32,000 nucleotides of DNA from Chlamydiota bacterium (GTDB lineage Bacteria; Auribacterota; JACPWU01). Under the pieces are notes generated by a model. That model was not told the DNA's origin. It searched no databases and was given only the letters and a program-made list of their open reading frames with translations. The translations under genes and the position numbers were made by a program. The stretch's first letter is position 1. Every line of letters begins with the position of its first letter. Shown here one piece after another: positions 9,001 to 26,300 of the stretch. Location of the stretch: positions 60,001 through 92,000 of the forward strand of contig JACPWU010000003.1 in NCBI GenBank assembly GCA_016196885.1, read 5' to 3'.

Positions 9001-12000
9001 TTCCTTCGCAGAATCATTCTGATGGAGGCGACCAAAGCCATCCAGAGAAGTCACGATCATACAGAGGCCGGGGCGGGGGGTTCCGCTTTGATTGAAGCCG
9101 TAGAGGCAGGAAGGCCCAGGCGCGGGGTCGCGTGGGCTTACCGAATTGTCTTCTTAGGGATAGGTCTTTTAGCTTCTGCATTTGCCCCTTCTTATATTTC
9201 AAAACCGGTATGGATTATTTTTCTCCTCATGGTCAATCCCTGGTGGCTTAAAAATGAATTTAAACATAAAGGAAAGCAAATGGAGGAGGCCCATTCGAGC
9301 TATACTTTTTCAAAGGCCCGTTTACAAGAGTGGCGAGTCGGGGACAACAAGATTCAGCATATCAAAAATCTTTATTATCGGGCCTTTGTCTATTTTATCA
9401 GAAGCTATACCCAGCCTCGCAATTTCCCTAAGGCGATTAAAACCCTCTTTCAGGCCTTTAAGGAGACTCCCACGCTCATCGAAAAATTTATCACCTGGAT
9501 GAATTTTATGGGCATTCAAAATGATCCAACCTTTGCGGGTTGGCTGGGTCTTTTATTTTTTACGGTTTTTAAGCCAGGCATGAGGGAATTGGCTTTCCCC
9601 TGGCTCTCAGACCTTCTCTTTATCAGCGCCATGATGCTTCTCATCAGTGTGACCTATCAAATCCGTCCCGTTCTGCGTAGAATTTTTAGGGAGCCATCTC
9701 CTAATATGAGAGTTTGGCTCTTGCGTACGGGGCGCAATTTGCTTGCTTTTGTCATCCCAATTATTATTGCTGTTTTGGTGGGTGATTTCGTCTCCACAGA
9801 GTGGACAGGCTTAACCCAGGATCTTTTTGACGGCCTAAGCCACTTTTTCAGAATGAGTTATAGCTTAACAGTAGGTCAAGGAAATCGTTTCTTAAGCATT
9901 AATCCGTGGATTCATATATTTAACAGCGTTCCCTATGTGCTGACCATGGTTTTAGGCTGGGGCTTCACATCCGTAGGAAGAGACATTGTCCGTGAATTTT
10001 ATCGCGGCATGTATTTGGTGTTCTGCAGTACATTGGTCCTCATCCGTAATTTATGGAATGTGACAGAAGCAGGGATCGTGGCCCTCAAATCACATGTGAG
10101 ATCTATTCCCGCAAAATGGACCACAGGGTCGGTGATCGAAGGATTTATGATGGATAATCTTATTAAAACAACCGACTTCTTCAAAAATGGTCTACCCCTT
10201 TTCTTGATTGGGTCAGGGCCTGTTGTCCTAACTGTTTTAGGCATTATACAACCCACCTATTTGGGTACTTCTTATACCATTATTATCTTTTCATTGATGC
10301 TAGGCTGGCTGGCGGATAAATGGACTACCGATTATGGCATGAAACGCTTCTATAGATTTCCTCAAATGGGCGTGGCGGAGGACCGCATTCAGGAACTCGT
10401 GTTTAGTTTGGAGGAATTCAATCTGAGATATAAGAACAGTGATAAAGATGAATACGCCTTCCGCCGTCGTATTCGTCAAATCGGAGGTCCCGTCCTTGTG
10501 TTTAGTAAGGACAAAGGTTATGAATTAGGAGAACGAGATTTAGCGCGACTTTACTTATCTAAAAATTATTTTCTGGCAGAGCAAGAACTCCAAGAAATAT
10601 TTCCCCTTTTATACATCCAAGACAATCTTCTCGATCAAAATATTAATAGAATTCTAAAAAGAATCAATAAGCGTAGAGAGGGACATGTTGAACTACTTCA
10701 GAAAGAAGTCTTGGAAGCCATTTTAAATATATTGAGAGGCAAAGAGAATGAAATCAAGGAAACCGATTTACGTCCTTTTCTTGAATATTTAGGAGAGATC
10801 TATGATTTAAACCATCGTGATGTAGAGCGTCTGTACGCTTGGTGTGCGATGAATTTTGAAAAATTTAACAGGCGGATTGTCTCAACATTTTTTACGTGGC
10901 CTTATGAGCCTGAGCTAAGAAAATGGTTAAAAGATCGAAAAGAGAAAAAGTCTTGGCAAACCATCGAAGGCAAAACGCTTGACCAAAAATTGGAAATTTT
11001 TGCCGAGCGCTTTTTGTTTAAGCCGGGCGTCTTTGCGGGTCACACCCGATTCTGGCAATATCCCCTGGCCCAGGATGGACCCTGGTGGGCCTATTTATTG
11101 GTTTTTTCAGCCGTCTTTGTCCCTGCCTGGCTTTTCTTTTGTGCCTATCTTGGATTTTTCTCCTTCATCGTACCTCTTTCTTTTGCCCTCTTGGCGACCT
11201 TGGGCATGTTAGGATCTGGACAATACTTAGCACTCAGCATAAAATCCTTGGCTCATCCTGAAGCCCGTAAACATCAGGTTTCCTTGCCCCGATATCTTCT
11301 TCAAACTATTTTTAAGAAATTGATGTTTTGGAAATCTGGATCTGAAAATGTGATGACCACCCTATTCTATTCAGTCCTTGCACTTCTAAAGATAGCAGCC
11401 ATCGGCCTCCTTTTTAATTTTAGCCATGTGAGTGCAATCATTTTGTTTGTTGCAGGCACCATTGCCATCATGTCCTGGGCTATGAAGCGTTCTCACAAGA
11501 TTCTCTTTGCCGTTTTTGGAACGGTCTTTACCTTTGGCCTTTTTGCGGAATTTCTTCTCATGGTTGAAATATCGGTGGGAGCAACCCTCTTTTTGTCAGC
11601 CCTTCCAACCCTTCCTTTGGTTTTTGCCGCAATCGCCTTATATCTCCTCTATCATATTCTGAATTATTACTTAGCTCGAACGGACGAATTCTGGAAGAGC
11701 GCTGAAGATGAAAAAAGGATGGATGCTATTGTACAGTCAGGGTTGGGACTCAGAGAAGAACTTGAGCCTGGATTTCAAGAAGGAAATAATTTTCGCACAA
11801 CGAACCCAGACACTCAGCTCTTGATTGACCTTGGTATTTTGGAAGGGGTGACCTCGTGGAACCGTCAGGGCGGTGGGGGATCAGATTCTGAGCCTTCTGA
11901 CGTTCCCCCAGCTCCCTGGGCGCCTCCTTTAGGCGAGGTCGAAGGTGGAAGGCCGAGGGTGGAAGGAAAATCACACGAGCGAGAAGTTGTTGACTCAGGT

Positions 12001-15000
12001 GTCCAGGCTCCAGCTTTGAGCCCAGTTCGTCCAATGACCTACGAGAAATCTGCTGGAATTAATGTCCCTCACATCATGACCCTGGATGAAATTCGAAAAG
12101 CCATTGCTCAGATTCCTCGGGATTCTTACCCGGGACTAGGGTTGGCAGCATATGCAGACGGTCTTTTTGTTTACTTGGAGGTACGTCCATCTGTACGGGG
12201 AGAGGGATGGGAGATTCCAGATGTGGTGGAGTTTTTTGTTGAGGATGAGAGGGTGTATTTTGCTACGAGTTGGAAGGGATCGGTATTGTATTTCTACTGT
12301 TCTAATCAAGTGGATGAGGGTGGAGATTTGTTGCCTGCTGCTCCTATTGAAAGAGACGCCTTTGAAGCGGCTCGGGCGAGGAGCCAAGGGCAAGCGCCTT
12401 CTATAGAAGAAGGCGGATCGCCAGCTCCAACCGCTTTACCTGCCTCATCGGGCCCGACGAATCAGGTCGCTACAGGGGAGGGTTCGGAATCAGTTTCTAG
12501 TGAATTAACTCCCCCGGCCCCTCCTAAGAACGGTGAGTCTATAAGCGCAGGAAACCTTTTGCCTGATCAAGGAACGGAAAATCCTTCACTTGATTTAAAA
12601 GCAGAAAACCCTCCCCTGGGTGTAAGGGGAGATGGAGGGGTTAGTGCATTAGCATCTGAACTTGCCCATACATCTAGCGTAGCTCAGCCCTCAAGAGTTG
12701 AATATCTCTCCCCTGGATGTGATGTCTCTGCTTTGATTGCTTCAGATGAAGCTTATGTTTCAAGAGAAGGCTTTCGGCATGAAGACTTGGCCCTACCTTT
12801 AGAGGAAGCCATTAAGCATGCTCTGAAAAGCGTAGTAGGCGAGAGCAATTTTATTTTTGGGAAAGAGACCTATTTTATTTCTTATGGGGGTATAAATTTT
12901 GTTGTGAATGACGGATTAGGAAACTCGTTACAGGCGCGAAGATTTTATAGGGTTACGCGGATAAAGACGTTGGAAACAATTCATTTTCTGGATGTGGCGC
13001 CGCGATTGATCAGAGAACATCATTTGTATGGAGATCCTAAAACATCCTATCGTGTGGAGCCTGCTCAAATTATTGAAATGTTTTATCCTTCAGAATTTGA
13101 TCTTGGGGGAGGGGGGGATGAGGGGGGTGATGGATCTCTTGAATCCAATGAGGATTTTGAAGGTGAGAGTTCTTTGGCTCCTTTAGAAGCAGAAGATTTG
13201 GTGATGGAGGCGTGGGGTCATTGGGGGGAGTTTGGTTCATTGAATAGATCCCCTGAAGGGACTGTACAGAGAATGGGGCGGATTCAACATGATATGACCT
13301 TTGCCCGTGGTTTTCTAGCCAGGGCAGAAGGGGCTTCGGATGTTTCGAAAAGCTTGGTTTTGTTAAATAATGCAGAAGTGCTCTTAAATTCGGCATGGGA
13401 ATCTATATCGGAAGCTGATCAATTAGGCCTAGATCTTGACCTGCAGTTAGGGGTGGATGTTCTTAATGAATTGCTGCGACTCGAAAAGATCAGAGAAAAG
13501 ATTTCTGGGGGAGAAGCTTCTTCAAAACTCAATGGGCATAAAACGGTAACTCCCCCAGCCCCTCTTACTCCAAGAGGGGGGAAAACTGTGGATCTAAGAG
13601 CGGGGAAAGCTGCAGATCTAAGAGGGGGGGGAACTGCAGATCAGGGTTCTTTAAATTTTTCTCGTACTTTAAGTATGGATCCCACGATTTTGCTCGTCTT
13701 ATCTCAAATTTTTTATGGATTTGTCTGGGTTAGTTTGGGGGTTCTCTTACTGGCAGGTTTAATCGGATGGTATGTGGGGTCTCATTCTCAAAACGAAAGT
13801 CCCAGTTTGAAAAAGATGGCAGGGATTGCGATTTTAATCTTGGGGCTTTTTGGGATTGCGATTTCTGCTTCTTCTGACCTTTCAAATCAGCCTTTGGCTG
13901 CATTGCTGCCTCAGCAGACTTCTGATCTGCAAGTAATTGCAAGTAAAACAGAAACTCCCAGAGTTGACGGACCAGTGATAGAAGAGAAAAGAGATGAACT
14001 AAAGCTAGTTGAGATTGCTCCACCTCTTAAGTTTGTAGAGCAGCAAACTTATACATGTTATTTGATTGCTTCTCCAAGTGATGAAACAGAAGAGGGAGAT
14101 GAAGATGATGAGGAGCTGGATGAGATGACCCCTGTAGAGGCAGTGGCAGATGATGGAAGTGAACCAGATTATTTTGATATTGATTATTATGCAAGAGGAG
14201 CATCATCTTACACAATTTCTTATCGTTCTCACATGTTCGGAGTTTTTCCGTATGAGATCTCGGGAAAAGGGGATGCCGAAGATGAAAATATAGAAGATCA
14301 AGAAAAGGTCATCCCCGACTTCATGACCCCCCCTCCCGAAATCATCGAAATGATTATTCAAACATTTGTGAGAGAAGCCAAGGGGAATGGCCTGGATGAT
14401 GCAGCCTTCAAAGAAGAGGCTGAAAAATTGGCTCGGGCCTTGCTCAGACCTGATGTGACGCCTCAAGATATCGAAGCAGCTGCAGATGCGATGATCGCGT
14501 TTGTTGCTGAAGACGGGGTTGAAAGTTCAGCTCAAGGAGCCAGTCTCGATGAGAGTGCGTTACGAAAAATGAAAGAAGATATTTTGCCGATTCTTTTTTA
14601 TATGGCAGATCTTCCTTATGCCGAGTCGCTCATTTTTTCTGTGAGCGATGATGGGTTGTCTCCGGAGCTTTTACGCCGTATGAATGTTTCTAAGGAGATG
14701 CTCAGAAAAGAGGTGGTTGTTGATCTAGGGGGTTCTGTAACCATCGATCTTACCCCGATTTCTCCGAATCTTTTCTCGATCGTCTTAAAAGAAATTATGT
14801 CTGCTAATTCTGAATGGATGAAAACAGGAGTTCTTCCGATTCACATTGCAACTTCTAGTACATTGCCAGAAGGCCTTGAGCTTGTCGCCATTTTTGATCG
14901 CGATAGGAACAAAATCAAAGTTTTCCCGATGACCACCCTGGGGGGTACGCCTCCACTGATCCTCACAAATCGCCGAACACAGACTGAACGTATCCGAGAT

Positions 15001-15039
15001 CAGGCTGGAACTGCTGGTTTACGTGGAAGGCAGTATTAA
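1..15039 (+). CDS. Giant multi-pass membrane protein, 5'-partial (>=5,012 codons in window)
   Basis: This frame is open from nt 1 (codons cgc cag gat precede the track's GTG at 10, no stop) to TAA at 15037-15039. Composition is protein-like throughout, with four hydrophobic helix clusters. Only short shadow ORFs occur in other frames. Confidence 0.85.
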   Translation, partial: RQDVALAFVITLRRQGLSTENAFAHLQDLQRAVERSQSSLNYLESLLGSETSNQVREAVERGDRQALLLLKREIMDGSKVCIDPNVDRYLISLLQFISSEGAVHMDLMLDKMAEVLKAHRKSHLSLQTDLVPGLQIWQAEMSVYGWGELEKVFGKDILQQIQEAVRLDKPEDVAKITLSPDIRHRAEEAMVGSSRGRPVEQYIRYVLLILEIEKAPLTLPFHEVTFFGEDFFKRGASPTFILDYFKARTYLRSSYSLYHRAAGNFESLEPFIEEVDRENKTIMGSQKERRLFVQPLTPPEKLSPGEEGSYLYRFEMGLDSYFDMGNHDIQMSALIVRGEREMLWKFEEMRVKHIPELREQLAEARERGDEKLIEQLEKALEKWKEARIVPFTYREVKEFLEAIKKGEMDKHEIDLFFETALYFQTKLLDSGLVTLDYFNGVSYLVNHFWNEPGLFEWLMQYRTETKIVELWTQEPDKKDLGPEGNRWKIYSLLGRMIAQGTPSSELVERLVNLDLELSGKGVPNDRSKTRMKEGIEAFQILRDVMIEMLGPSLHNQEKKTAFRRLIEELLESPSSLGPSLENWLWGVLESRIGITEAQDWKLNKERLSQVRKDDEKTKADTADRANAIMRERPNLLMKTDLKKSDLRLLGMDPKTADEFWQYLTQSGFLEPNRELDGLLAGNVSQDLRIRLVADERLGGELEALRVGMSEEMREEMTRLLGSPLMQGLDDVLFSSVNAVEELLSAKIPEPLKRYLPVTLLSSMTALEKVKWIREEFLSDPATFELVMSRSVQVQPREPGMEHALEQLKTILLSKNASLKGIFEKHADAVGRIQGALRDAGPSSREYLEGLLALVLPDKLEQSHGKDVVNDNDPFKPLKPLQFTLKWERKLSPELRLHLGQLFEDLIRHREEFEIQPFTDENRSSIRQILGIASTDRNQAFEGLKAYCRDEAVITRALDRAVEGDIEGGLALLEPFAKEDWILRGVFRLKAEKADVQTAVAILDQLYPGFHIDPGYLETLETRMKEGYRASDIRHYLEHRERANALLLVMHNLDDEQVKRSLLRLEGRFPDNFSELFPEERKKFDDAVDGPLKTEITQLAYLVEAYRKLPYRGPRVQFKKTGILYPTYHPEVRVLMALPENELEAKLVQALQDSLGIRLTPEQLERLKMRDISNGDSGEVVNRILNFGNDTADVLRKLSYSNFGVDWRVKLMLSNLEGLDREMPDTVRDELNSALGEDVVHQIETALQMTRTSADSLHQSHISMSEPLRTELTGLLGAPLLDSMNVIFASETVSLGELGEGKGLEPLKPLLGETLVSSIQAVLLDHTIPDPQKITTLRNILSRDEHGATILRMVSLFPGDLAIPNTLDKLHEILPDLDNNSLTILVHLRTLLDPDYFNRLRVLVLADTTACDVIRYHRMDTKDPAYEYFRALRVIVDDKSRVDLLKEIVLDQKFSSPQEGKKISPPKLSEQARQWLSLTMLLTEGSYRPELYNLIRENPATVVSRMRGMILVDQASVDIMANAYVREGLSYHDARQLRDGCTILSEAILSKHKDLRIGSKAPELTEMVYYLSTVLQDSVWGQPVVPTPVVTPSMIREVVEEWFGTIKADLNLSEADYKALIDQVTKNALTPDGKKVRVAPHEIRLVVENARAIWTGAKFTGEEFFPDKPNPKAEKAWKLLRIYWEQENKGRPRTFGDVFIHALRSGKTNLLEYLPQEDLASRSLPQEEELEQYLERNAEILKSVGFGDLHISDIREHELKMNDAMEKVWTYLLKDDLEKKYGDKIETPKGSDEKIPKILLGMGAVGWGVGILANVKTSVKSGRISKILKGSAWLTGIAGRLLFRVACHFLIAFAAAYLFDLSFERGYLDSFLESLGDFFGFIPPKFETGSLPRIFYVLKFMSLNVYKNGLPLLAILVSFFSIYAGGLVAHGLFDRKNQLKNRTRKIVHTAIEILLPVGVFWGLVFTESFGPIGPAFEALGHLVTLTLIFILTLYHTGAIRKLILETLPHYLKVYLKALFLKENMDREKEHALAPLRMNLYMIPHRFVMLIFAIFYGVLITMHVSSSPWLTALVTAMVSLLFWSNAYVSVTGVGDVIIAPRTLNEHPWIKNHGIMPMKYHSALFVPFIASSKTDARDVLMLVHRSFLENVKMCEVTKDDHGTYTIQHFDGTKDPDVPIEFFNQKLRERIQGLSRGGEDFIKIPDPRDQLKVIINSQVKDKEVMQLEIELIKKFQEELGDDRFIWIHRNMDDPFLRKPGTMYDALAGLLLKYFRPAVYTGSVIDKREKIIRTDKESGKKVELLRYDPSDRYGLRERRVFKVEGMKISDDADFSFHMYFYGDDPENPLFEIEEGALYEIQYREEGDRTIRERVHLAHEHEYEISDLDLNHVSIMSRETGKPFKDSRGRVLTPRPLRFSMDSILEYKDSEDRAVKLSIDPEGNTLCLEDYTDPRTNIFYPRGSIYSRAGTHELDFTYHLYKVDWKTDKATLVRDEENKPLRVDIVKRTYTANENHVDLQFLNDFKDTEPAVFLRVGDLTTPKGELPKYKGQELTSKNFEYSGDVLEEGKIITTKIIGSKQFRLRAARDQNGNLIPENEVEILYFDLVPVDGENAKPEIRAVRIATPEDLLHRTRKGDLISGGKINEEVEKKQAVLIKEDGSLEFGENFLGNALKKGLWKTTYGNGFFLKDRKGNLVQDPNQEGRPFIQGQFFGEGDWRRQNPLLPIWKVNPDLIGGFQESGVLTAKEARQMSEKNTVLGDVHSLHMGKRGDEKHYLISRLKEGGAPTPGRQVRGGFLVNEADDYFEVTRENLSEATRKGNDTGGARKGALVHKRIELKNGRWIEVWSVVAEQARDFDLLKPVEDKDTMILREKGKPPILGKKGKEGSGLFYLHNAQTGQVVLDLAGHKVEADHAVEIFHQPDGDNEFLIGTVHYVGSRQALEREFDNDYSIFQEELPFDLGSWGRAHYPTTQTIAQNKLFYPLALMWRLAGKTAFFGKGSHTGSTFLRRIILMEATKAIQRSHDHTEAGAGGSALIEAVEAGRPRRGVAWAYRIVFLGIGLLASAFAPSYISKPVWIIFLLMVNPWWLKNEFKHKGKQMEEAHSSYTFSKARLQEWRVGDNKIQHIKNLYYRAFVYFIRSYTQPRNFPKAIKTLFQAFKETPTLIEKFITWMNFMGIQNDPTFAGWLGLLFFTVFKPGMRELAFPWLSDLLFISAMMLLISVTYQIRPVLRRIFREPSPNMRVWLLRTGRNLLAFVIPIIIAVLVGDFVSTEWTGLTQDLFDGLSHFFRMSYSLTVGQGNRFLSINPWIHIFNSVPYVLTMVLGWGFTSVGRDIVREFYRGMYLVFCSTLVLIRNLWNVTEAGIVALKSHVRSIPAKWTTGSVIEGFMMDNLIKTTDFFKNGLPLFLIGSGPVVLTVLGIIQPTYLGTSYTIIIFSLMLGWLADKWTTDYGMKRFYRFPQMGVAEDRIQELVFSLEEFNLRYKNSDKDEYAFRRRIRQIGGPVLVFSKDKGYELGERDLARLYLSKNYFLAEQELQEIFPLLYIQDNLLDQNINRILKRINKRREGHVELLQKEVLEAILNILRGKENEIKETDLRPFLEYLGEIYDLNHRDVERLYAWCAMNFEKFNRRIVSTFFTWPYEPELRKWLKDRKEKKSWQTIEGKTLDQKLEIFAERFLFKPGVFAGHTRFWQYPLAQDGPWWAYLLVFSAVFVPAWLFFCAYLGFFSFIVPLSFALLATLGMLGSGQYLALSIKSLAHPEARKHQVSLPRYLLQTIFKKLMFWKSGSENVMTTLFYSVLALLKIAAIGLLFNFSHVSAIILFVAGTIAIMSWAMKRSHKILFAVFGTVFTFGLFAEFLLMVEISVGATLFLSALPTLPLVFAAIALYLLYHILNYYLARTDEFWKSAEDEKRMDAIVQSGLGLREELEPGFQEGNNFRTTNPDTQLLIDLGILEGVTSWNRQGGGGSDSEPSDVPPAPWAPPLGEVEGGRPRVEGKSHEREVVDSGVQAPALSPVRPMTYEKSAGINVPHIMTLDEIRKAIAQIPRDSYPGLGLAAYADGLFVYLEVRPSVRGEGWEIPDVVEFFVEDERVYFATSWKGSVLYFYCSNQVDEGGDLLPAAPIERDAFEAARARSQGQAPSIEEGGSPAPTALPASSGPTNQVATGEGSESVSSELTPPAPPKNGESISAGNLLPDQGTENPSLDLKAENPPLGVRGDGGVSALASELAHTSSVAQPSRVEYLSPGCDVSALIASDEAYVSREGFRHEDLALPLEEAIKHALKSVVGESNFIFGKETYFISYGGINFVVNDGLGNSLQARRFYRVTRIKTLETIHFLDVAPRLIREHHLYGDPKTSYRVEPAQIIEMFYPSEFDLGGGGDEGGDGSLESNEDFEGESSLAPLEAEDLVMEAWGHWGEFGSLNRSPEGTVQRMGRIQHDMTFARGFLARAEGASDVSKSLVLLNNAEVLLNSAWESISEADQLGLDLDLQLGVDVLNELLRLEKIREKISGGEASSKLNGHKTVTPPAPLTPRGGKTVDLRAGKAADLRGGGTADQGSLNFSRTLSMDPTILLVLSQIFYGFVWVSLGVLLLAGLIGWYVGSHSQNESPSLKKMAGIAILILGLFGIAISASSDLSNQPLAALLPQQTSDLQVIASKTETPRVDGPVIEEKRDELKLVEIAPPLKFVEQQTYTCYLIASPSDETEEGDEDDEELDEMTPVEAVADDGSEPDYFDIDYYARGASSYTISYRSHMFGVFPYEISGKGDAEDENIEDQEKVIPDFMTPPPEIIEMIIQTFVREAKGNGLDDAAFKEEAEKLARALLRPDVTPQDIEAAADAMIAFVAEDGVESSAQGASLDESALRKMKEDILPILFYMADLPYAESLIFSVSDDGLSPELLRRMNVSKEMLRKEVVVDLGGSVTIDLTPISPNLFSIVLKEIMSANSEWMKTGVLPIHIATSSTLPEGLELVAIFDRDRNKIKVFPMTTLGGTPPLILTNRRTQTERIRDQAGTAGLRGRQY
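5390..6275 (+). other. Hydrophobic helix cluster 1 of gene 1 (~8 predicted TM segments)
   Basis: Translated runs include ILLGMGAVGWGVGILANV, LFRVACHFLIAFAAAYLFDL, GLPLLAILVSFFSIYAGGLVAHGLF, LLPVGVFWGLVF, LVTLTLIFILTLY, FVMLIFAIFYGVLITM and LTALVTAMVSLLFW. Confidence 0.6.
9127..10314 (+). other. Hydrophobic helix cluster 2 of gene 1 (~8 predicted TM segments)
   Basis: Translated runs include VAWAYRIVFLGIGLLASAFA, VWIIFLLMVNPWW, FAGWLGLLFFTVF, LLFISAMMLLISV, LLAFVIPIIIAVLVG, VPYVLTMVLGWGF, LPLFLIGSGPVVLTVLGII and IIIFSLMLGWLA. Confidence 0.6.
11080..11675 (+). other. Hydrophobic helix cluster 3 of gene 1 (~6 predicted TM segments)
   Basis: Translated runs include WWAYLLVFSAVFVPAWLFFCAYLGFFSFIVPLSFALLATLGML, LFYSVLALLKIAAIGLLF, AIILFVAGTIAIMSWA, LFAVFGTVFTFGLFAEFLLMV and LFLSALPTLPLVFAAIALYLLY. 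Confidence 0.6.
12506..12643 (+). mobile_element. MITE-like element copy A, in frame inside gene 1
   Basis: The left end is TAACTCCCCC (12506-12515). The right end is TAAGGGGAGATGGAGGGGTTA (12623-12643), preceded by its partner arm AACCCTCCCCT (12607-12617). The same ends occur at 18605-18753 and 30790-31064. Span is 138 bp = 46 codons. Confidence 0.5.
13548..13647 (+). repeat. Partial copy of the element's left end, followed by a 24-nt tandem repeat (x2.8) containing a G8 run
   Basis: TAACTCCCCC lies at 13548-13557, followed by the hairpin CCCCTCTT/AAGAGGGG (13560-13567 / 13573-13580). The 24-nt units lie at 13579-13602, 13603-13626 and 13627-13647 (partial), encoding GKTVDLRA/GKAADLRG/GGTADQ. 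The G8 run is at 13625-13632. Confidence 0.6.
13687..13870 (+). other. Hydrophobic helix pair near the C-terminus of gene 1
   Basis: Translated runs are ILLVLSQIFYGFVWVSLGVLLLAGLIGWYV and MAGIAILILGLFGIAISA. Confidence 0.55.
14957..15033 (+). repeat. 77-bp direct repeat R1 (coding 3' end of gene 1)
   Basis: 75/77 identical to 15702-15778, with mismatches only at 14963/15708 and 14981/15726. Repeat period is 745 bp. Confidence 0.95.
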
Positions 15040-15701: not shown

Positions 15702-15778
15702 TGATCCCCACAAATCGCCGAACACCGACTGAACGTATCCGAGATCAGGCTGGAACTGCTGGTTTACGTGGAAGGCAG
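15702..15778 (+). repeat. 77-bp direct repeat R2 (non-coding copy of the gene 1 terminus)
   Basis: 75/77 identical to R1. It is followed by atgtaa (15779-15784), so it would encode ...LRGRQM-stop if it were joined to gene 1. Confidence 0.95.
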
Positions 15779-16664: not shown

Positions 16665-16720
16665 GTAGTCGCCCGATTTATCGGGCAATCCATGTATGGC
16701 CCCATAAATGGGGCGACTAC
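16665..16720. repeat. Double-hairpin palindromic (REP-like) element, copy 1
   Basis: GTAGTC [GCCCGAtttaTCGGGC] aatccatgtatg [GCCCCAtaaaTGGGGC] GACTAC. The reverse-complement copy at 30815-30859 has the 12-nt spacer reduced to 1 nt. Confidence 0.85.
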
Positions 16721-16755
16721 AAATGGACGACACTTTTCCCCAATCTTTTCTCGAT

Positions 16756-16809
16756 TTGCCCAACGGCAACGGGTCGAATCCGAGAACAAGCGGGGACTGC
16801 TGGTTTACA
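16756..16809 (+). repeat. Degenerate third copy (R3) of the gene 1 terminal repeat
   Basis: 16775-16809 matches 15734-15768 at 29/35 positions (cgaatccgagaacaagcggggactgctggtttaca). Similarity in the 20 nt upstream is weaker (about 11/20). Confidence 0.6.
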
Positions 16810-17222
16810 TCTCTCCATTTTAATCTCTTTAATCCTCCTCCTTTAAGCCAGATTTTACAATAGACGCGAGAACTCAAGAGCAAGAGCTTGAGCCAGACAG
16901 GCCTTTGCAGTCCCTGTGGGATTGGCCTGAAGAAAGCGCAGGTATGCATAAAAAGATGCCTGTCGAGCATTTCTGAAGGCCAAGTACCCCAAGATGTTGC
17001 GTCGAATTCCGCGGCCTATTGCAAAATCTGGGTTTAAAGACGAGATCCTTCGTCGCAAAAGAGCTCCTCAGGATGACAAATGAGGGAGGTTCTAGAACGG
17101 ATCTTATTTTTAACTTTCTCTCCTAGAGTAACTTAAATTATTAAAAACTCCTCATTTTTCTTTTGACCTTCTGGCCCTTTCAGATGTCTTTAATGTTGAA
17201 AGCTGTTATAGCAAGGTACCTT

Positions 17223-17330
17223 ATGACAAGTTTCAATGTAAATTATGAAAAATCCTTTCGGAAATTCGTTTCCACTCTCCTTTTAATCACTTTTTCATTT
17301 ACGTATCTTGTTCAAGATACGGGATTTGCA
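17223..17330 (+). other. Signal peptide / signal anchor of gene 2
   Basis: In MTSFNVNYEKSFRKFVSTLLLITFSFTYLVQDTGFA|QE there is a basic n-region, a hydrophobic core and an xFA-Q junction. Confidence 0.55.
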
Positions 17331-20300
17331 CAAGAACTCAATACAGCGTATAGCGTTCAGCGGACAGCGGACAGAAAACCAGCGGATACGATTTCTCCTA
17401 AATCAGCTCTGCTTGAAGTTTCTCATGGTGCAGAGGTTTCCATCCCCGCAAACTTAGGCGATGTCATTGACCGCTATGAAGGCAAAGACGACCGCATGAT
17501 TATTCAGATTCAAGACGTGCACTGCCATTTCGAGGCCCAGTCTAATACCGCTAAAATTATTTCTGACCTTCTCCAGAAACATGGGGATCACGGTCTTAAG
17601 ATGATCGGTCTTGAGGCGGCAGAGGGTTCTGTGGATACAACTCTTTTGACTTCCTATCCTGATAAAAAACTTCGAAAAGTCCTCGCCGAATACCTCATGA
17701 AAAAAGGAAAAATTTCCGGTGCTGAATATCTTTCTATCATTCAAGATAAACCGCTTCCTCTTGAAGGCGTAGAAAACATGTTTCATTATTTTGAACATCT
17801 CTTCCAATTTGACCGAGGGTTGGATGTAAAAGACAAAGCCTTGCCCATTTTGGACAAAATAGAAAAGGCAATTACAGATCTGCGCGAAAAAATTTATTCC
17901 CAAGAAGTGTTGGAAGTTTTGAACAAAGAGAAGTCCTATTTGGAAGGGGATACTCAGATTGATGAGTATGGAAAATATTTGGTAGACCAGGCGTTAACTC
18001 TTAAGCTGGATGTTGGGGGGCAGAAAAATTTTCAAGGCATGATGAAAGTGGCAGATTTAGAAAAGCAAATAGATCTTAAAAAAGTAGAAGAGGAAAGAGT
18101 TCATGTCCTTGAGATTTTAAGCAGAAAGCTCGTGAAAGAAGAGATGGTAGAACTGATGACGAAGAGTTTGTATTACAGACTCGAGAAAATGGATGCGTGG
18201 GAATATTATGAATATTTAAAGACTGTCGTGAGTCCCGCGGGGACTATAAAAACATGTCGTGAGTCGTTAGGGGTGAGTGGTCAGAATTCAACGTTAGAGA
18301 AAACTTATCCCAACCTCTCAAAATATATCCAAATGACTGAAATATTTCACGAGATCAAGAGTGATGAGCTTTTGAAGGAATGTGAAAAGATATCAGAGGA
18401 AGTACAGGATAAGTTGTTAAAGACCAAAGAAGAAAAGGCGCTCAGGCAAATTGAGAAAGACTTTATTATTTTGAGAAACTTTTTTGAATTGGAGATGAAG
18501 AAGAGTGAGTTTCAATATTATGTGGAGAATAAGGAGAGGGTTTCAGCAAAAAACATAGTGGATGGGTTGGAAGAAATCCAGGATCCAGGGTCCAGGGTCC
18601 AGGGTAACTCCCCTCGGTCCCCTCTTAAACTAAGAGGGGAGGAAAAACAAAAACAAGAGCAAACAAAGAGCGCTTTTCCTATTTTAAAAGGGGAGGAAAA
18701 GCAGAGATGGGTAACGTCCCCTCCCCTTAGTTTAAGGGGAGATGGAGGGGTTACAAATGACGACATCACATTCCTCGACTCTCATCTCAAAGACCTCGAA
18801 CAATTCTATCGCTATTCAGACAATCGTGAAGAGGCGATGGTCCAGAACACGCTCCGGAAAATGAAAGAGAACGAGAGCCCGATTGCGATTCTATACGCGG
18901 GAGGATTTCATACGGATGGACTCACGAAGCGCTTGGAAGAAGAGGGCGTGTCTTATGTCGTTGTTGCTCCCAGAATCACACAATTCAAACTCAAGACCCC
19001 GTATTTATCTATTATCAAGAACGAGCCTTCGAAATTAGAGAAAATGTTGATGGATTTGGAGAAGAAAGAAAAGGGGACGATGGCGACTCTACCGTTAGAG
19101 GGAGATCTAAAAACAGAAGTTGCTGCTCTCAGTGGTTTGGAGGCAGATGATCCAGCACGAGTGAATGGAGAGGAAACGATTCGGCTTCAAATAGCAGCTC
19201 TTAGATCGGCTTTGATCGTACGTGGGCTGCTAAATTCCGATATTTCGGCAAATGATATTACTTTCACTCGAGAAGGTGACACCGTCACTATTCTCATTTC
19301 TGGCATTCCCAGATTTCAAATCACCCTGAATTCTGAAAATAAAAATAATCCTGAAAAGTTGGTGGAGAGTATTGTGCCTATTGAAGTTTCTGCTCCGACT
19401 GAGCAAACATCGGAGTGGGTAGGTGGCCCTCTTCGTAGTTTGGACGGAAGTTATCAGGCGTTAGAGAGTGAGGAGATTAAGACGTTGAAAGGTCTTGCAA
19501 GCAAAAAAGGGGGATATGCGATTCCTTCCAGTACGGAAACGTTTGGTGATGACGAGGTGGTTTGTCGCGTGGTGGATTATGATGAAAAGAAGGGAGACCC
19601 TGTTTATGATATTTTTCAGCCGCACAGTATCAAGGCCTACCATTATATGGCGGCAGCCGTTCCAAATTCTGAAAGACCAGGTTTAACAAGAATAGTGGTT
19701 TATGCGTTTCTCCCTCGTAGGCTTGACGAAAGGGAATACGCTTTTCGCAAGAGGCATGAAATTTTAGAATCGCTTTGGGAGTACAAGCTTAAAAAAGAGG
19801 GAATAGCCTACCGGAACCGCCTGGAAAAGAATCCTTCAACTCCTCAACCTCTCTGGATGCAATTAGGCCTTTCTCGGGATGTTGCGGCTCATATCCTCGC
19901 TTGGGGACAGCATGTTCTCGAAGAGGGTTGGGATAATATTGAACAGTGCCCCTTCTTGAAAGAAGAAATTCAAAAATTAAATCTTGCCCAACTTCAGGCC
20001 ATTTATTCTGACGAAACCATTCAAGAGAGAAATCGCATTCATAATCCTTTGAGAAAACATTATCTTTCAGGTTTTAACGATGCCGATTGGCAGCGACTTG
20101 AGACCTTTGAAAATTCTGTGAGGGATTTGGCCAGAAGACTTACTTTTCCTTCAAAGTTGGTTCAGGATTTAGATAATCAGGGAAGGGGTCGAAAAGTTTT
20201 GTGTCTTGGAGCAGGTGGAGACTATCAAGAGGCAAATTTCTTTAGCTCCCGTAATTGTGGTGTGGAAGTGGTCAAAATGAGAGGGGACGCAGAAGGTGAT

Positions 20301-23300
20301 GATAAAGACTTTGAGGTATATGAAGCAGAAACACAAGAAGCAGCCGAGGAACGAATCATTAATGACATCTTAAGAAGGCTTCAATTGGATGAGGGGAAAA
20401 AATATGATGCCATTTATGCCCGTTTGAGTTTGCACCATTTGCCCCAGAAGTATCTTTTGCGGGTGCTCAGAAAAATATCCGACATGCTCGAAGTGGGTGG
20501 AAAGTTCTATTGGGTTGTCAAATCCAAAGACGATGTTCTGTATCAAGGTCGGACTGGCGAACCTGGAGAGGACGGTTTGACTCCTTATAGAGATCAGCCC
20601 TCAGGACAGGAGCTGAAGAGAAGGTTTTTTACGCCTGATGAAATGAAAGCATTGTTAGAAGCGAAAGACGATGCTGAGAAAACCATTTTTGGATTTGAAG
20701 TATCTACAATCAATCCTCGTTTTGAACGCTTGACCAGAAGAACAGCGCCCATCACACAGGACAATCATGAATCAAGTTTGTTGGAAGTAGTGGCGGAAAA
20801 GAAAGAGGATGTAGCCCTTGCTTTGGATGTTCCTGCCCGAGTGGTGCGTGTGGGGGCCAAGCTGTTTGACGGTGAAACAGGGGCACAACCGATCGAGCCA
20901 GATGTTCGCCCGAGCATAAAAGGAGATGTTGTGGATGTAACAGAGCTGTCAGATGAGGAAGGACTGACGGATGAAGCGGTAGGCGCTCGTTCTGTCATGG
21001 CTGGAGAGGGTTGTCTTTCTATACTGGCAGCAGGGGGGAGTTCGCGCATGGCCATTGCCAAAATGCCAGAGCGTTATAAGAAGGATATTGGTGATGCTGA
21101 TATAAATTCAAAGGCATTGGTTCCACTTGGAAGTTATAGAGCAAGGACGATAACCTATTTCGGTGCATTTTTTTATAACATAAAGAGATTGTTTGAGGGT
21201 CTTCAGAAAGAAGCGGAAGGGACAAATATAGAAAATCATTTGGAGGATAATGACATTATGTATCTTACAAATGACACATACGCCCAAGAGCAGGCAAAAC
21301 ATTTAAGGCAAAATGAAAGTTTTGGACTGCAACAAAGAATTTATTCTTATGTTCAGCCCTGGGTCAATAAAATTTATGCCCCGCCTGACCAGATAGGACC
21401 GCTCAGGAAGAATTTGAATAACGAAAAATTTGATGCAGCCAAGAAAAGATCCGAGGAGATTCAAGCCGCTTTTGACAATGGCGATGAAAAAGCGGTGGTG
21501 CATAAAGAAAAAGGTCCTTGGGGTCATGGGGAATACTTGCATCAGATGGTGGTCAGCGGCCGTTTGCTCGATATGTTGGAAAAGAATAAAAAATGGATTT
21601 ATGTGAGAAATATAGACAATAGCGGAGCTAAATTTGACCGGGTTTGGTTGCGTGCCTTGGGTCTGTTCCTGAAAAAGGGTGTGGGTTTTATGCCGGAGGT
21701 ATCACCTCGATCCCCTGGACAAAAGGGGGGGGGATTGCTTGTGGTTGGTGGTAGGCAGGGGATTGGTGAGGACGCGATTATTGCGGCTACGGCCAAGGCA
21801 AAAAATGATTCAACTCTTACCGCAGAAAATTGCTATTGGTTTAACAATGGGGCCGGATTCATGACGCCCTCATTTGTAGCGAGTTTGTATATGAGTGAGG
21901 GGCAGACGATTGATGCGTTTATCCAGGAGCTTCAAGATGCGAACGGGGATGTGGAAAAATTAGAGGCGGTTGCAGAGAGGGGGAGGGGTAAATTCCTAAA
22001 ACTATTTGACGTCAAGCCAACTAAAAATGGAGAAGGGGCGGCTCCATTAGAAACGAATCTATGGACTTCATCCATTGTGGCTCCCGTAGATCAATTGGTT
22101 GAAGCGGTCGGGGTTCGCGGAGTGCGTGCGTTGATAGAAAACGAAGGGATGTTGTTAGCTTATTTTGCCTTATCGTGGGAAGATAAAATAAAGGTTTTAG
22201 AAAAAATTCGATTTTTTTCTGCGAAACAATGGGAACTCCCCGAGGAGACTGTAGAGAAAAATAGACGTCAACTGGAAGAGAATTATAACGAAGCCCTTCG
22301 AGCAAAATGGGGGCAAGAAAAGGTCAACAATCCTGATTTAATGCAACCGCCTCGTCGAACTCTGACGAGGGAAGAGGCCCTGTTGGTATCAGAGACGTAC
22401 GAGGGAAATTTGCAAGTCGCTACAGATATGCTTCGATACATATATGAGGCCCCGTTGGTCACGCCGGGGGTTTTTAGAGAGGCTTTATCAGCGGCTGAAG
22501 CAGGTGCTTCAGTCAGTCCTAATTCAAACGTTTTTGCTGAAGTCAAAAATTTATTGGTTCTAGCTTTAACCGCAGCAGCTTTGTTTGTGGCACCAGGCCC
22601 ACAGGCAAGGGCGGCTCTGCCTTCTGTGGAACCTATAAAATCAGCGCTGGTTCAGAAAGACGGGGGCCAGCGGCCAGCGGCCAGGGAAACACATTTAACT
22701 TTAGCTCAGTTGATTGAAAGAGAAGGGGGGGCTTTAGCGGATTTGAGGCGGACACGGCATGCGGTCTATACCGTCATGGCCAAGACGCCTCAAGAAATGA
22801 AGACAATGGATGAACAGGTTGAGAGAGGTGAAGCCAGTCAACTCCGAGAAGGGGTTTATACAATTTATGGATATACTCCAAGTCAAGAAGGGGTGTTAAA
22901 GGCTCGTGTTGCCCGAGGAGAGGCGAGTGTAGAGTATCGGACGGTTTCGAATCCGCCTGTGTTGAGTCAAGCTGATCAGGCGCTTGCCCGTAGTGTCGAA
23001 GGGCATCTTGCAACGCATCGTCTTTATGAAGCGGACCCAGCTTTCAGAGAAGAAGTGGGTCGAATTTGGAAATCCCTTTCTAGGCAAGATCGACAGATTT
23101 TTGCGGAGCTTCTCTTTGTGCGAAGAGGGGATCGTAGTGCGAAGACAGATGCAGTCATATCTGAATTTGCTGCTGCCTTGGCGAATCCAGATTATTTAAT
23201 GGATAGATTTAAACAATTTGCTTATGCGAGCAGTAAGGCGGCTGGGAAAGTTAAGGGACTAATTTTTGAATTTAAAGGAAGTCCAACACCTGAAAAATCC

Positions 23301-26300
23301 GCGGGTCTTTATCTGAGAGACCGAAGTGATCGGGAGAATGAATGGGGCTTTCGAATGAAAGTAGAAACTTTAGCCGCGAGAGTTGCTGCTGCTCAAACAG
23401 CGGCTCAAGGTCGAGCGGGGGTTAAAGTAGCCGAAGTAAAGCCTTTCGACTGGTTAAAACCTGTGATTGAAGGAAAGAAATATGATGCCGTTGGCGCAGG
23501 GCTTCTTGAAAATGGGGCTCAAAATAATGCAAGTGTCTTGGTCAATGGTCTTCGCAACTTCGTCATGGGAGGGTGGCTTATCGGAATCATTTTTATAGGG
23601 GCGCTCACTAGACTTTTGAAAGCCATGCGTCCTTCAAAACCTTTACTGGGGTCTGAAACCTTGGATTCCCGCTTATCCCGACAAGGGGCTGCTTCGCTGA
23701 AGCCTGCGGGAATGACAAATGTTGGTGCAAGCAGTCCTGTTATCCCCGGATCCCCACTTCCTGTCATCCCCGAAATAGATGGATCCCCGATTATAGATTT
23801 CGGGGACGGATCCAGTCCAGCATCTGTTTCTCAAGTAGCTGAAGTCCGTCCCGTTGTTGAAGTTGTTCGTGTTAATTCCAGCCGTTCTTCCGGTAGACGT
23901 TCTAGGAGCAATGTGATTATTGAGTTGATATATGAATCTGGGCTAGGTTTACATTGGGGCACGACTCTGTATCTGGTTGAAACACGGCTTGAAAGAAGGA
24001 TGCGAGAATTCCAAGAAAGCCAAGGAATGACGGAACTGGCTTTTGCGCAAGCTATTCAGGGAATGGAAAAATGGCAAGTCAAGTGGATAGGACGCCTCTT
24101 TTCAATTTCAGATGTGTATCGCCTGTTCACGTCCGAAAATAGAGCAGCTCTATCAAGTTGGGTGACGGAAAAAAAGTTTGGTACAGATGAAGGTGTTTCA
24201 GCGTATGTTCAAAAAATGCAGGGCATGAAGAAGGAAAAGCAAAGGATTCGAGCCGTTCGATCCAGTTTGCCAGCAGGCTTGGCTGGCATGGTTGAAAGGG
24301 TTGTAGTTGCTGAAGGACGAGGCGGTCGAAATAGCATTGGCCCTTGCGTATATATTAAATTAAGAGCGGGTCTTTTTGAATCTTATTGGATGGTGATCGG
24401 AAATAATCTTGGAAATTTAAGCCCTTATCTTCATCGTTTGGGTTCTCAAAAGACAAGGGCTTATCGCTTGCAAGGGCGAGATCTTGGATTAGGCCAATTC
24501 GGAGATTACATAACCTTCTTTAAAGAACCTGGGTTATTCGAAAGAGTGAGAGATTTTGCTCGGGATTTGTTGCTGAAATTAGATTTATCCACATCTGACC
24601 CCACTGTTGCAGGTCGGGCGGCTCAGCTTGCCGGCACAGCCGCCATCGCCTTTCTCTATGGCGCAACGCAGTCGGGATGTTCAAGGCAAGAGGACGATGT
24701 AAATCTTGAATCTTTAGATGCCTCGCAATTGACCAATTTTGGTGGCGTCAACGTTGCGCAATATGACGATCCCAGTGGTGTTTTTAGAGTGCTTGAAGAA
24801 GAAACTCCTGAAGGTGAAATGCCACAATCGGGCAGTATAAATTCCCATCTTTTTGGGACAGGGTTATATGAATATGAAACAGATCATCCAGATTTATTTG
24901 CGTCTCCTCATGCTGTAATGCAAGCGAGGATTGGTGTTATTGACCTGGATTCGTCAAAGGAAGATGCAGGTTATGGAACGACTGAAGATGAGGCAATAAG
25001 CGGTGGAGGGTCTGCGGGAATGTATTTCAATTTTCAAGACAATTCGTTAGATCAATTAGAGGCTGGGGGATACAAAATCTATATTGCCTTTTCAGCAGAT
25101 GGAAGTCTAACTCACGACGAAGTCGTTCTTAAAGTTGAATTAACGGATAAATATGGTGACACCGTAAAACGGGATGTTAAAACAGGATATATTTATTTAA
25201 GCAACGTCAATTCTGGACTGCAGGGCGCATGGATTGATTTGAGAGAAGCCAGAGATTCTGATGGGAATTTACTGGATTGGGAGCCTTCGGACACTGCGCG
25301 AATAGGTGGAGTGGATGGTGTGCAGGTGGATGTTTTTTTAGGATCTATTAATTTTGCTACTGTGTCTAGCGCTCAGAAAGGGATCGTTATCCGCTGGATT
25401 GGAATTGATAAGAGTCCAATCAATCTTATTTACCCTATAGAAGGAAGTTCTGCGGCTGATTTAAGCATTATTGATGGAGTGAATGAACCTAGCGTTGGTC
25501 CCAACTTAACTTGGGATGAGAAGGGAAGAGCGACTCAAGAGTGGGCTGTTCATTTTTTTGATAGCGATTCAAGTGATGCAGCAAAATACTATGAATGGGA
25601 GATCCCTGAAGATAAAAAGACCTATGATCCGAATGGAACAACCGTTTTTGAAGTTGAAAGTTCTGAGCTTGCAAGTTTCAATGTTGAGGTGAAGGAGTAT
25701 CAGAGAGATGCGGACGGAAATATTTTAACGTCTACGGACGAGGATGGAACAGTAAAGCCTCTGCTTCTTCAAAGCACTGTCTTAAACACTCAAGAGATCA
25801 TGAATGGGAAGTTGGGTTGGTCTTCAGCCAATCCTCGTGTGATCATTGATCATCGTTATCTAGACCATCGAGGTTTAAAATATTGGGATGCGATTACATT
25901 GGTTGTTAAGAAAAACCAAACGACTCAGAACTCTATTACAGTCAATATCCGCGGCATACTTTCTGAGGATCTTTTTCCGATTCAATACAACCTCACAGAG
26001 GACACAGGTGAGGGGGATGAATATACGGTTGACAATAATTATGAAATTGCACCCATTGGAACAGAGGTCACAGTTAGAAGTGTTGTGACTGACCAGTATC
26101 CTCATGGAAGTCACACCCTCACTCGAGAAATGATCATGGAAGGAATTATCAATCCAGATGATTATGGTGCAGAGTCCTTTGTCTTTTCCGCAACCAAAGG
26201 AAAAGAAGATTTTCTATACGATCCGAGTGGGACGGTTGACGTTGGAGTGAATGATATTGATAACACACTTACGGGTTTTACAGTGGAGTATCAAATCACG

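Follow-up and report, generated by a model that had tools for sequence, protein, structure and literature searches.

A divergent UDPGP-family enzyme domain behind a predicted Sec-type signal peptide in long proteins of Omnitrophota- and Elusimicrobiota-like bacteria

The 32,000-nucleotide stretch analysed here (the window; contig JACPWU010000003.1, positions 60,001 to 92,000) comes from a metagenome-assembled genome of an uncultured groundwater bacterium and is identical across 20,414 bases to contig JACOUD010000054.1 (assembly GCA_016178005.1). It consists mostly of two very long genes on the + strand, at 10..15039 and 17163..27248, the second of which is the subject of this study. Its mechanically determined open reading frame (ORF) begins with a TTG at 17163; in the public record the gene starts at the ATG at 17223, which is preceded by AAGG six bases upstream. 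The frame is uninterrupted for 10 kb and identical in the NCBI record. Behind a predicted signal peptide the gene encodes a methyltransferase-like domain and a divergent UDPGP-family domain. An earlier note on this DNA had pointed to such cytoplasmic-type enzymes behind a signal peptide. This holds: the signal occupies residues 1-36, and no plausible membrane helix appears until residue 1774. The features are collected in Table 1.

Table 1. Features of the long gene and of its probable continuation (positions in the window; residues numbered from the Met encoded at 17223)
Feature	Position	Strand	Basis or remark
Long gene as annotated	17223..27248	+	3341 aa from ATG 17223
Sec-type signal peptide, predicted, aa 1-36	17223..17330	+	sequence reading, hydropathy, same feature in most large homologues
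Conserved N-terminal domain without assigned function, aa ~60-610	17400..19052	+	common to ~13-16 homologues
Class I S-adenosylmethionine (SAM)-methyltransferase-like domain, aa ~975-1200	20145..20822	+	family profile and model fold match
Divergent UDPGP-family (UGPase/UAP1/USP-type) nucleotidyltransferase domain, aa 1204-1758	20832..22496	+	Pfam, profile, model, Foldseek
UDPGP motifs	LAAGGSSRM (21024), SKALVP, QP, GHGE (21522), NIDN (21609), KGG (21723)		
Further UDPGP motifs	FNN, KP (22014), ETNLW		
Hydrophobic helix H2, aa 1774-1792	22542..22598	+	directly after the enzyme domain; sequence NLLVLALTAAALFVAPGPQARA, then A
Hydrophobic helix H3, aa 2113-2132	23559..23618	+	highest hydrophobicity of all segments; four K/R after
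Marginal hydrophobic segment H4, aa ~2469-2487	24627-24683	+	hydropathy scans
Acidic, Lys/Arg-poor, beta-rich repeat modules after H4	24627..27107 (with H4)	+	extracellular-type composition
G5 run, apparent reading-frame break	27104..27108	+	comparison of frames
Probable continuation in the +1 frame, 1224 aa	27100..30774	+	module similarity

The N-terminus reads MTSFNVNYEKSFRKF, VSTLLLITFSFTYLV and QDTGFA, followed by QE, and cleavage is predicted between GFA and QE. It has the basic n-region, the core of 7-16 hydrophobic residues and the small residues at -3 and -1 that define a Sec-type signal: three K/R precede the 16-residue core VSTLLLITFSFTYLV, the next 15 residues contain no K/R at all, and the predicted cleavage site has Gly at -3 and Ala at -1. 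Neither a Tat signal nor a lipoprotein signal fits, as the N-terminus lacks both the twin-arginine motif (RR) and a lipobox Cys. Signal and topology were called here from hydropathy and charge rules (Kyte-Doolittle and a crude Hessa-type scale). In neither scan did any segment between residues 31 and 1769 stand out as a possible membrane helix. The idea of a helix concealed in the enzyme block was considered and rejected, because the one segment that came into question, also the best there, is modelled with confidence as a beta-strand of the UDPGP-like fold; hence no helix has been overlooked between the signal and the enzymes. H2 is itself signal-peptide-like, with a hydrophobic core and the sequence PGPQARA followed by A (…LLVLALTAAALFVAPGPQARA, then A). 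The loops following H2 and H3 are both net basic.

The UDPGP-family domain matches Pfam PF01704 with 38.9 bits (gathering cut-off 22, E 5.6e-10), the alignment covering only positions 159-294 of the 413 in the profile; homologues score between 28.8 and 83 bits. The single sequence matches Leishmania UGPase at 7e-5 and a 16-sequence family profile does so at 4.7e-14, with the core motifs PGHGD/GHGE, NxDN and EV...KGG aligned to residues 185-260 of the L. major enzyme. An AlphaFold model built on the family alignment (pLDDT 89, pTM 0.90) has the three-part UGPase/UAP1 fold with a central Rossmann-like nucleotide-binding domain, and each of its 50 best matches in Foldseek is a structure of UAP1/AGX, UGPase or USP (E 7e-15 to 5e-12, TM 0.44-0.59, probability 1.0). 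NCBIfam gave no usable match. Thus the domain that the earlier note had placed at 20992-22230 is indeed present, above the Pfam threshold and with a matching fold, but it starts earlier and ends later than proposed, and its description as well-matching does not suit a divergent domain with a partial profile alignment.

The active-site residues of the family, which the earlier note had wanted checked against UGPase, are retained: GHGE, NIDN, EV..KGG, KP and ETN are all found. In the 16-sequence alignment, which includes stand-alone forms, AG..SR, SKAxVP, QP, GHGE..H, NxDN, E..KGG, xNN, KP and ETNxW are invariant, and across the relatives 82-95 of 87-95 domain hits retain the active-site residues. 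Known UDPGP enzymes carry the nucleotide-loop signature L(X)2GXGTXM(X)4PK. In the window the loop reads LAAGGSSRM, 14 residues and SKALVP (family consensus AGASSRM...SKAAVP); Gly, Arg, Met and Lys are retained, the second Gly and the Thr are replaced by Ser, and the spacing is much longer. Judged by sequence, the catalytic residues are clearly not degenerate.

The domain resembles the UGPase/UAP1/AGX1/USP enzymes of PF01704 in fold and core motifs, yet it is only 11-16% identical to UDPGP structures that have been solved. Its family differs from the known enzymes by the AG(A/G)SSRM loop, by about 20 residues inserted before the conserved Lys, by an extra conserved N-terminal segment (YWxGxLxTTPIxRPFRxSRKEDV) and by a C-terminal helical extension. 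The context differs as well: known UDPGP enzymes are soluble and cytosolic, whereas the window enzyme is part of a 3.3-4.5 kaa membrane protein and lies behind a signal peptide.

As a single sequence the methyltransferase-like domain stays below the Pfam threshold, but a 12-sequence family profile matches class I SAM methyltransferases (phosphoethanolamine N-methyltransferases, TehB and others) at 6e-21. The model (pLDDT 77) has the Rossmann-like seven-strand methyltransferase fold and matches class I SAM methyltransferases in Foldseek with E 3e-9. The methyltransferase-like fold that had been proposed from the sequence is thereby confirmed. In this fold an acidic residue closing beta-2 normally contacts the ribose of SAM. 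The window protein has VEVVK, ending on Lys, at this position, whereas 11 of 11 aligned relatives have Glu or Asp. Normal SAM binding by the window copy therefore appears doubtful, and its catalysis may be impaired. Motif I (GxGxG) reads VLCLGAGGD (at 20196) in the window and LG(S/A)GDF in the long-protein subfamily; small relatives have the canonical LGCGTG.

The UDPGP-like domain belongs to a sizeable family. An exhaustive HMMER search yielded 121 relatives; a word-indexed homologue search with residues 990-1790 found nothing. About 70 of the relatives contain the UDPGP-like domain of ~550 residues with 28-44% identity, mostly within proteins of 1,000-6,000 aa. Some of these ~70 are stand-alone proteins of ~460-520 aa that lack a signal, and these cytoplasmic homologues are 28-41% identical. 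The phyla were assigned by a scan of one genome per species: the embedded forms belong to Omnitrophota and Elusimicrobiota (Endomicrobium among them), the stand-alone forms mainly to Planctomycetota, plus a single one each from Binatota and from an Elusimicrobia genome. A cluster look-up returned 'hypothetical protein' labels only, and the gene neighbourhoods of the stand-alone Planctomycetota copies were uninformative.

Most large members of the family share the arrangement seen in the window. In 29 relatives the N-terminus passed the signal-peptide heuristic and no helix precedes the UDPGP-like domain; with about six others, whose obvious signal peptides the heuristic had missed, this amounts to ~35 of ~60 large homologues. 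Nine homologues have a signal and a variable number of helices ahead of the domain. Three relatives (P0023, P0049, P0051) align with the window protein from residues 4-11 onwards, i. e. over the signal and the N-terminal domain, and the order of signal peptide, N-terminal domain and UDPGP-like domain is repeated in independent genomes of two phyla. These alignments and the canonical signals without a following helix speak against the suggestion that the N-terminal segment is not an export signal or that the true start lies downstream of it. The export paradox is real and extends over the whole family.

Behind the signal, relatives carry further enzymes of sugar-nucleotide metabolism. PGM/PMM is complete in P0013 and P0014 and represented by domains I and/or II only in P0009 and P0030; P0020 has a GHMP kinase, and P0003 and P0051 have a complete UDP-glucose 6-dehydrogenase. 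An apparent helix directly after the UDPGP-like domain of P0003 proved to be a Rossmann strand of the dehydrogenase and not a membrane helix. Phosphoglycerate kinase (P0019), NUDIX (P0047), RidA (P0009) and a response-regulator receiver (P0002) are also found in this position. These fusions widen the paradox to enzymes that require ATP and NAD+. Because several of the fused partners make sugar-1-phosphates or consume UDP-glucose, they also support the view that the UDPGP-like domain would be a genuine sugar-nucleotide pyrophosphorylase rather than a binding relic.

One of the stand-alone forms has an informative neighbourhood. On the Elusimicrobia contig CAZFYO010000006.1 (5923-13691) a gene for a UDPGP-like protein of 518 aa lies between three genes of the TMEM260-like (GT-C type) + TPR kind, and the ends of these genes adjoin or overlap. 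This suggests an operon for the glycosylation of proteins or of the envelope and would tie the family to envelope glycosylation.

The N-terminal domain, which follows directly after the signal peptide in ~13-16 homologues, is characterised by the motifs IQDVHxHxEAQ, LEG and AGGFHT. Its profile found no relative of solved structure and no Pfam match, and Pfam detected nothing in the N-terminal 970 aa or the C-terminal 1570 aa of the long protein. A hint at ChaN/Tiki came from one of eight members at a sub-threshold E of 0.062 and was not used to name the domain. Other homologues, among them P0004, P0005, P0008, P0019 and P0027, have an alternative conserved segment with the motif GLPxPGxMVxLS after the signal. 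In the window the N-terminal domain is interrupted at 18610-18754 by a palindromic in-frame repeat. The palindromic element of ~35 nt (CCCTCCCCT..TAAGGGGAGATGGAGGGGTTA) occurs at 12609-12644, 18610-18643/18717-18754 and 31044-31065; it lies in frame within three separate coding regions, and both giant genes translate it as PPL(S/G)xRGDGGV. It seems to be a small repeat element that genes tolerate internally.

The C-terminal repeat modules of the long protein contain 6.3% Lys plus Arg against 13.6% in the enzyme block, as expected for a location outside the cell. Past the G5 run the long ORF continues as a Cys/Arg/Trp-rich sequence to a stop at 27248, while the ORF at 27100-30774 opens with a module that shares 34% identity (E 2e-24) with the final in-frame module of the long one. 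This second ORF, in which Pfam found nothing, contains a short hydrophobic helix at 29149-29190, followed by RARVRRD and a tail of 527 aa. Probably the two ORFs are a single gene for ~4516 aa, broken by an indel of 1 nt that stems either from an error in the assembly or from slipped-strand variation at these G residues. The enzymes, 4.6 kb upstream of the break, are left unaffected.

The upstream gene at 10..15039 is the 3' part of a gene to which the public record gives 9014 aa. Hydrophobic segments are numerous in it; it is oriented in the same direction as the gene at 17223..27248 and has repeat elements in common with it, and Pfam gave no match over 4999 aa. Between the two giant genes lie two toxin-antitoxin pairs, DUF433/DUF5615 and nucleotidyltransferase/HEPN (Pfam). 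A direct repeat of 77 nt accompanies them: its first copy (14957-15033) closes the upstream giant gene at the 3' end, the second (15702-15778, 97% identity) is located after the DUF433/DUF5615 pair, and the third (16749-16808, 72% across 60 nt) after the nucleotidyltransferase/HEPN pair. Both cassettes look as if they had been inserted with duplication of a flank. A REP-like double hairpin (GTAGTCGCCCGATTTATCGGGC … GCCCCATAAATGGGGCGACTAC) with fully (100%) complementary arms of 23 nt each is present at 16665-16721 and, in the opposite orientation, at 30811-30863, and thereby brackets the long gene and its continuation.

Long proteins with related properties have been described in Omnitrophota. 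The giant 'Archaeovorins' reported by West-Roberts et al. 2023 (bioRxiv 10.1101/2023.11.21.568195) have signal peptides and many helices and contain glycosyltransferase, methyltransferase and NUDIX domains. Most of their domains, including triosephosphate isomerase, phosphoglucomutase and aldolase, are predicted to be extracellular, and the authors consider that an overlooked helix may explain a wrong localisation. According to a later preprint (bioRxiv 10.64898/2026.06.07.730766), 39% of 916 long Omnitrophota proteins combine a signal peptide with helices, and one class of long proteins is termed 'multi-enzyme metabolic cluster'. Host-dependent traits in Omnitrophota were described by Seymour et al. 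(2023).

The window protein shares with these giants the signal with few helices, the methyltransferase and sugar-metabolism domains and a mostly unannotated sequence. As in both preprints, cytoplasm-type enzymes are predicted to lie outside, a paradox which those authors leave without an answer. However, its 3341 aa (~4516 aa if joined) fall short of the more than 10-30 kaa of the Omnitrophota giants and of the Archaeovorin defining set (at least 30,000 aa), and its UDPGP-like family, unlike the giants, occurs in Elusimicrobiota too. The Archaeovorin-type content of the window protein itself comprises the methyltransferase-like domain, the signal and the helices, whereas NUDIX, PGM and similar domains are found in its relatives only; Pfam detected no glycosyltransferase, GH, peptidase, NUDIX, HEAT or SecA-like domain in it. 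The terms 'UDPGP', 'pyrophosphorylase' and 'uridylyltransferase' were not found in the main texts of the two preprints. The paradox as such is already in the literature; the particular value of the present family lies in its UDPGP-like module, which is conserved and is met again and again in two phyla, together with pathway neighbours, behind clean signals.

The reading that we favour, though with some reserve, is that the block is genuinely exported and that a host or prey cell provides its substrates. The protein would then be a long, envelope-anchored, multi-enzyme protein of a type typical of Omnitrophota- and Elusimicrobiota-like bacteria. The Sec signal would carry the N-terminal 1,740 residues over the inner membrane, H2 and H3 would then anchor the chain, and the acidic, beta-rich C-terminal modules would likewise be outside. 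Topology models that use the N-terminal signal in the N-in/C-out orientation (the signal as H1 together with H2 and H3, whether or not the last helix is counted, or H4 replacing H3) place both the enzyme block and the acidic modules outside, at the cost of one positive-inside violation at H3; the only models with the enzymes inside ignore the N-terminal signal and take H2 as the first N-in/C-out crossing. The exported block would comprise the N-terminal domain, the possibly impaired methyltransferase-like domain and a catalytically competent UDPGP-family enzyme, which would interconvert nucleoside triphosphate and sugar-1-phosphate with nucleoside diphosphate-sugar and pyrophosphate in one direction or the other. 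Such substrates are absent from an ordinary periplasm, and therefore the enzyme would use metabolites from another cell, be it where predator meets prey or symbiont meets host, in a periplasm that receives host cytoplasm or after delivery into a partner cell. Action in another cell had been offered before as one of three explanations; we infer that action there or outside is the most economical one.

The enzyme may moreover be part of an externalised sugar-nucleotide pathway. On this more speculative and rather doubtful extension, host-dependent Omnitrophota and Elusimicrobiota would send out an entire nucleotide-sugar pathway, built as domains into long proteins targeted to Sec. It may run from a sugar kinase or phosphoglucomutase through the UDPGP-like pyrophosphorylase to UDP-glucose dehydrogenase and draw on nucleotides and sugar phosphates of a partner cell in a contact zone, in a host-fed periplasm or in the cytoplasm of the partner.

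Two known systems offer partial parallels. The large clostridial glucosylating toxins of the TcdA/TcdB type have an N-terminal enzyme that needs a nucleotide sugar of the target cell, central hydrophobic segments and C-terminal repeats; they lack a Sec signal, and their enzyme is a glycosyltransferase and not a pyrophosphorylase. The order in the window protein is similar, though no relation in sequence or fold is known, and no autoprotease domain was detected in it. Chlamydia trachomatis exports glycogen enzymes (GlgA and others) and the phosphoglucomutase CT295; these act outside the bacterium on UDP-glucose and Glc-1-P supplied by the host (PMC4829429, PMC9251005). As proposed here, housekeeping enzymes of sugar-phosphate and sugar-nucleotide metabolism are exported by a host-dependent bacterium. 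However, the chlamydial enzymes are separate proteins of normal size with type 3 secretion signals and reach the inclusion lumen, whereas the window enzyme is a domain of a membrane-anchored long protein with a Sec signal, for which no host compartment is known.

Several observations weigh against export. To our knowledge, no UTP, SAM, NAD+ or ATP is present in the bacterial periplasm, and relatives have phosphoglycerate kinase, UDP-glucose dehydrogenase and even a response-regulator receiver behind the signal. H3, with one K/R before and four after, breaks the positive-inside rule in the export model. The enzyme block has an ordinary, cytoplasm-like content of Lys plus Arg, unlike the C-terminal modules, and Pfam scans revealed no recognisable secretion or delivery machinery within the window. 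Since nine homologues vary in the number of helices before the domain, simple parity gives no single location for the family. The location was called from hydropathy and charge rules, and topology predictions for such proteins are at times unreliable (West-Roberts et al. 2023, bioRxiv 10.1101/2023.11.21.568195). H2 resembles an internal signal sequence, as do its counterparts in P0042 and P0047, where basic residues precede the helix and AXA follows it; were H2 oriented N-in/C-out, the enzymes would be in the cytoplasm.

This leads to a fourth explanation beside the three given in the earlier note, namely a misread topology, which has been raised in published work and receives some support from the signal-like H2. 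The N-terminal segment would tether the protein without translocating it, H2 would be the first N-in/C-out crossing, and the enzymes, on the cytoplasmic face, would use UTP and SAM of their own cell and feed sugar nucleotides to membrane-adjacent envelope or glycan synthesis. If H2 runs in-to-out, H3 out-to-in and H4 in-to-out, the positive-inside rule is satisfied at H3 and the acidic modules still end up outside. The composition of the enzyme block, the existence of stand-alone cytoplasmic homologues, the published caution on overlooked or spurious helices and a family repertoire purely cytoplasmic in type (UDPGP, PGM, GHMP kinase, UDP-glucose dehydrogenase, phosphoglycerate kinase, NUDIX, receiver) all agree with such a topology. 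Yet no feature of an N-in/C-out signal is missing from the N-terminus, the AXA-type cleavage site included, and ~35 homologues conserve this; no mechanism is known by which 1,700 residues behind such a signal would be kept cytoplasmic. Moreover, H4 is just marginally hydrophobic, and the net-basic loop 1793-2112 would end up outside. We regard a misread topology as the main rival, unlikely though worth serious attention. Improbable in our view is that the exported domains are pseudoenzymes or binding modules, which would perform no catalysis but recognise ligands of a partner cell, be these nucleotide sugars, glycans or methylated ligands. The Lys at the end of beta-2 and the atypical motif I make this earlier suggestion more plausible for the methyltransferase-like copy than for the UDPGP-like domain, where the AG(A/G)SSRM loop in place of GxGT(R/S)M and the long insert ahead of the conserved Lys could be taken in its favour, but where the near-invariant motifs, kept in more than 90% of ~90 domains and equally in exported-type and stand-alone forms, and the repeated fusion to substrate-making or product-using enzymes argue for catalysis. 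An artefact of annotation or assembly, i. e. a wrong start codon, genes fused through lost stops or a chimeric contig, would fit a metagenome-assembled genome with a probable 1-nt frame break near the 3' end and palindromic repeats in frame within the coding sequence. It is very improbable, given a 10-kb ORF identical in the NCBI record, the same order of signal, N-terminal domain and UDPGP-like domain in independent genomes of two phyla, and the distance of the break from the enzymes.

Genuine export remains the reading to which we lean. The family provides a tractable test case for a paradox that had already been raised on proteins of 30,000-147,000 aa: its proteins have only 1-5 kaa, a clean signal, usually no helix before the enzyme and an easily assayed activity. 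If the topology has been misread, this would be a warning that signal-peptide calls on such long proteins cannot be trusted. If, on the other hand, the block does reach the outside and is active there, ultra-small, host-dependent bacteria would carry out nucleotide-dependent central metabolism beyond their own cytoplasm, which would bear on how such bacteria feed on or manipulate their partner cells.

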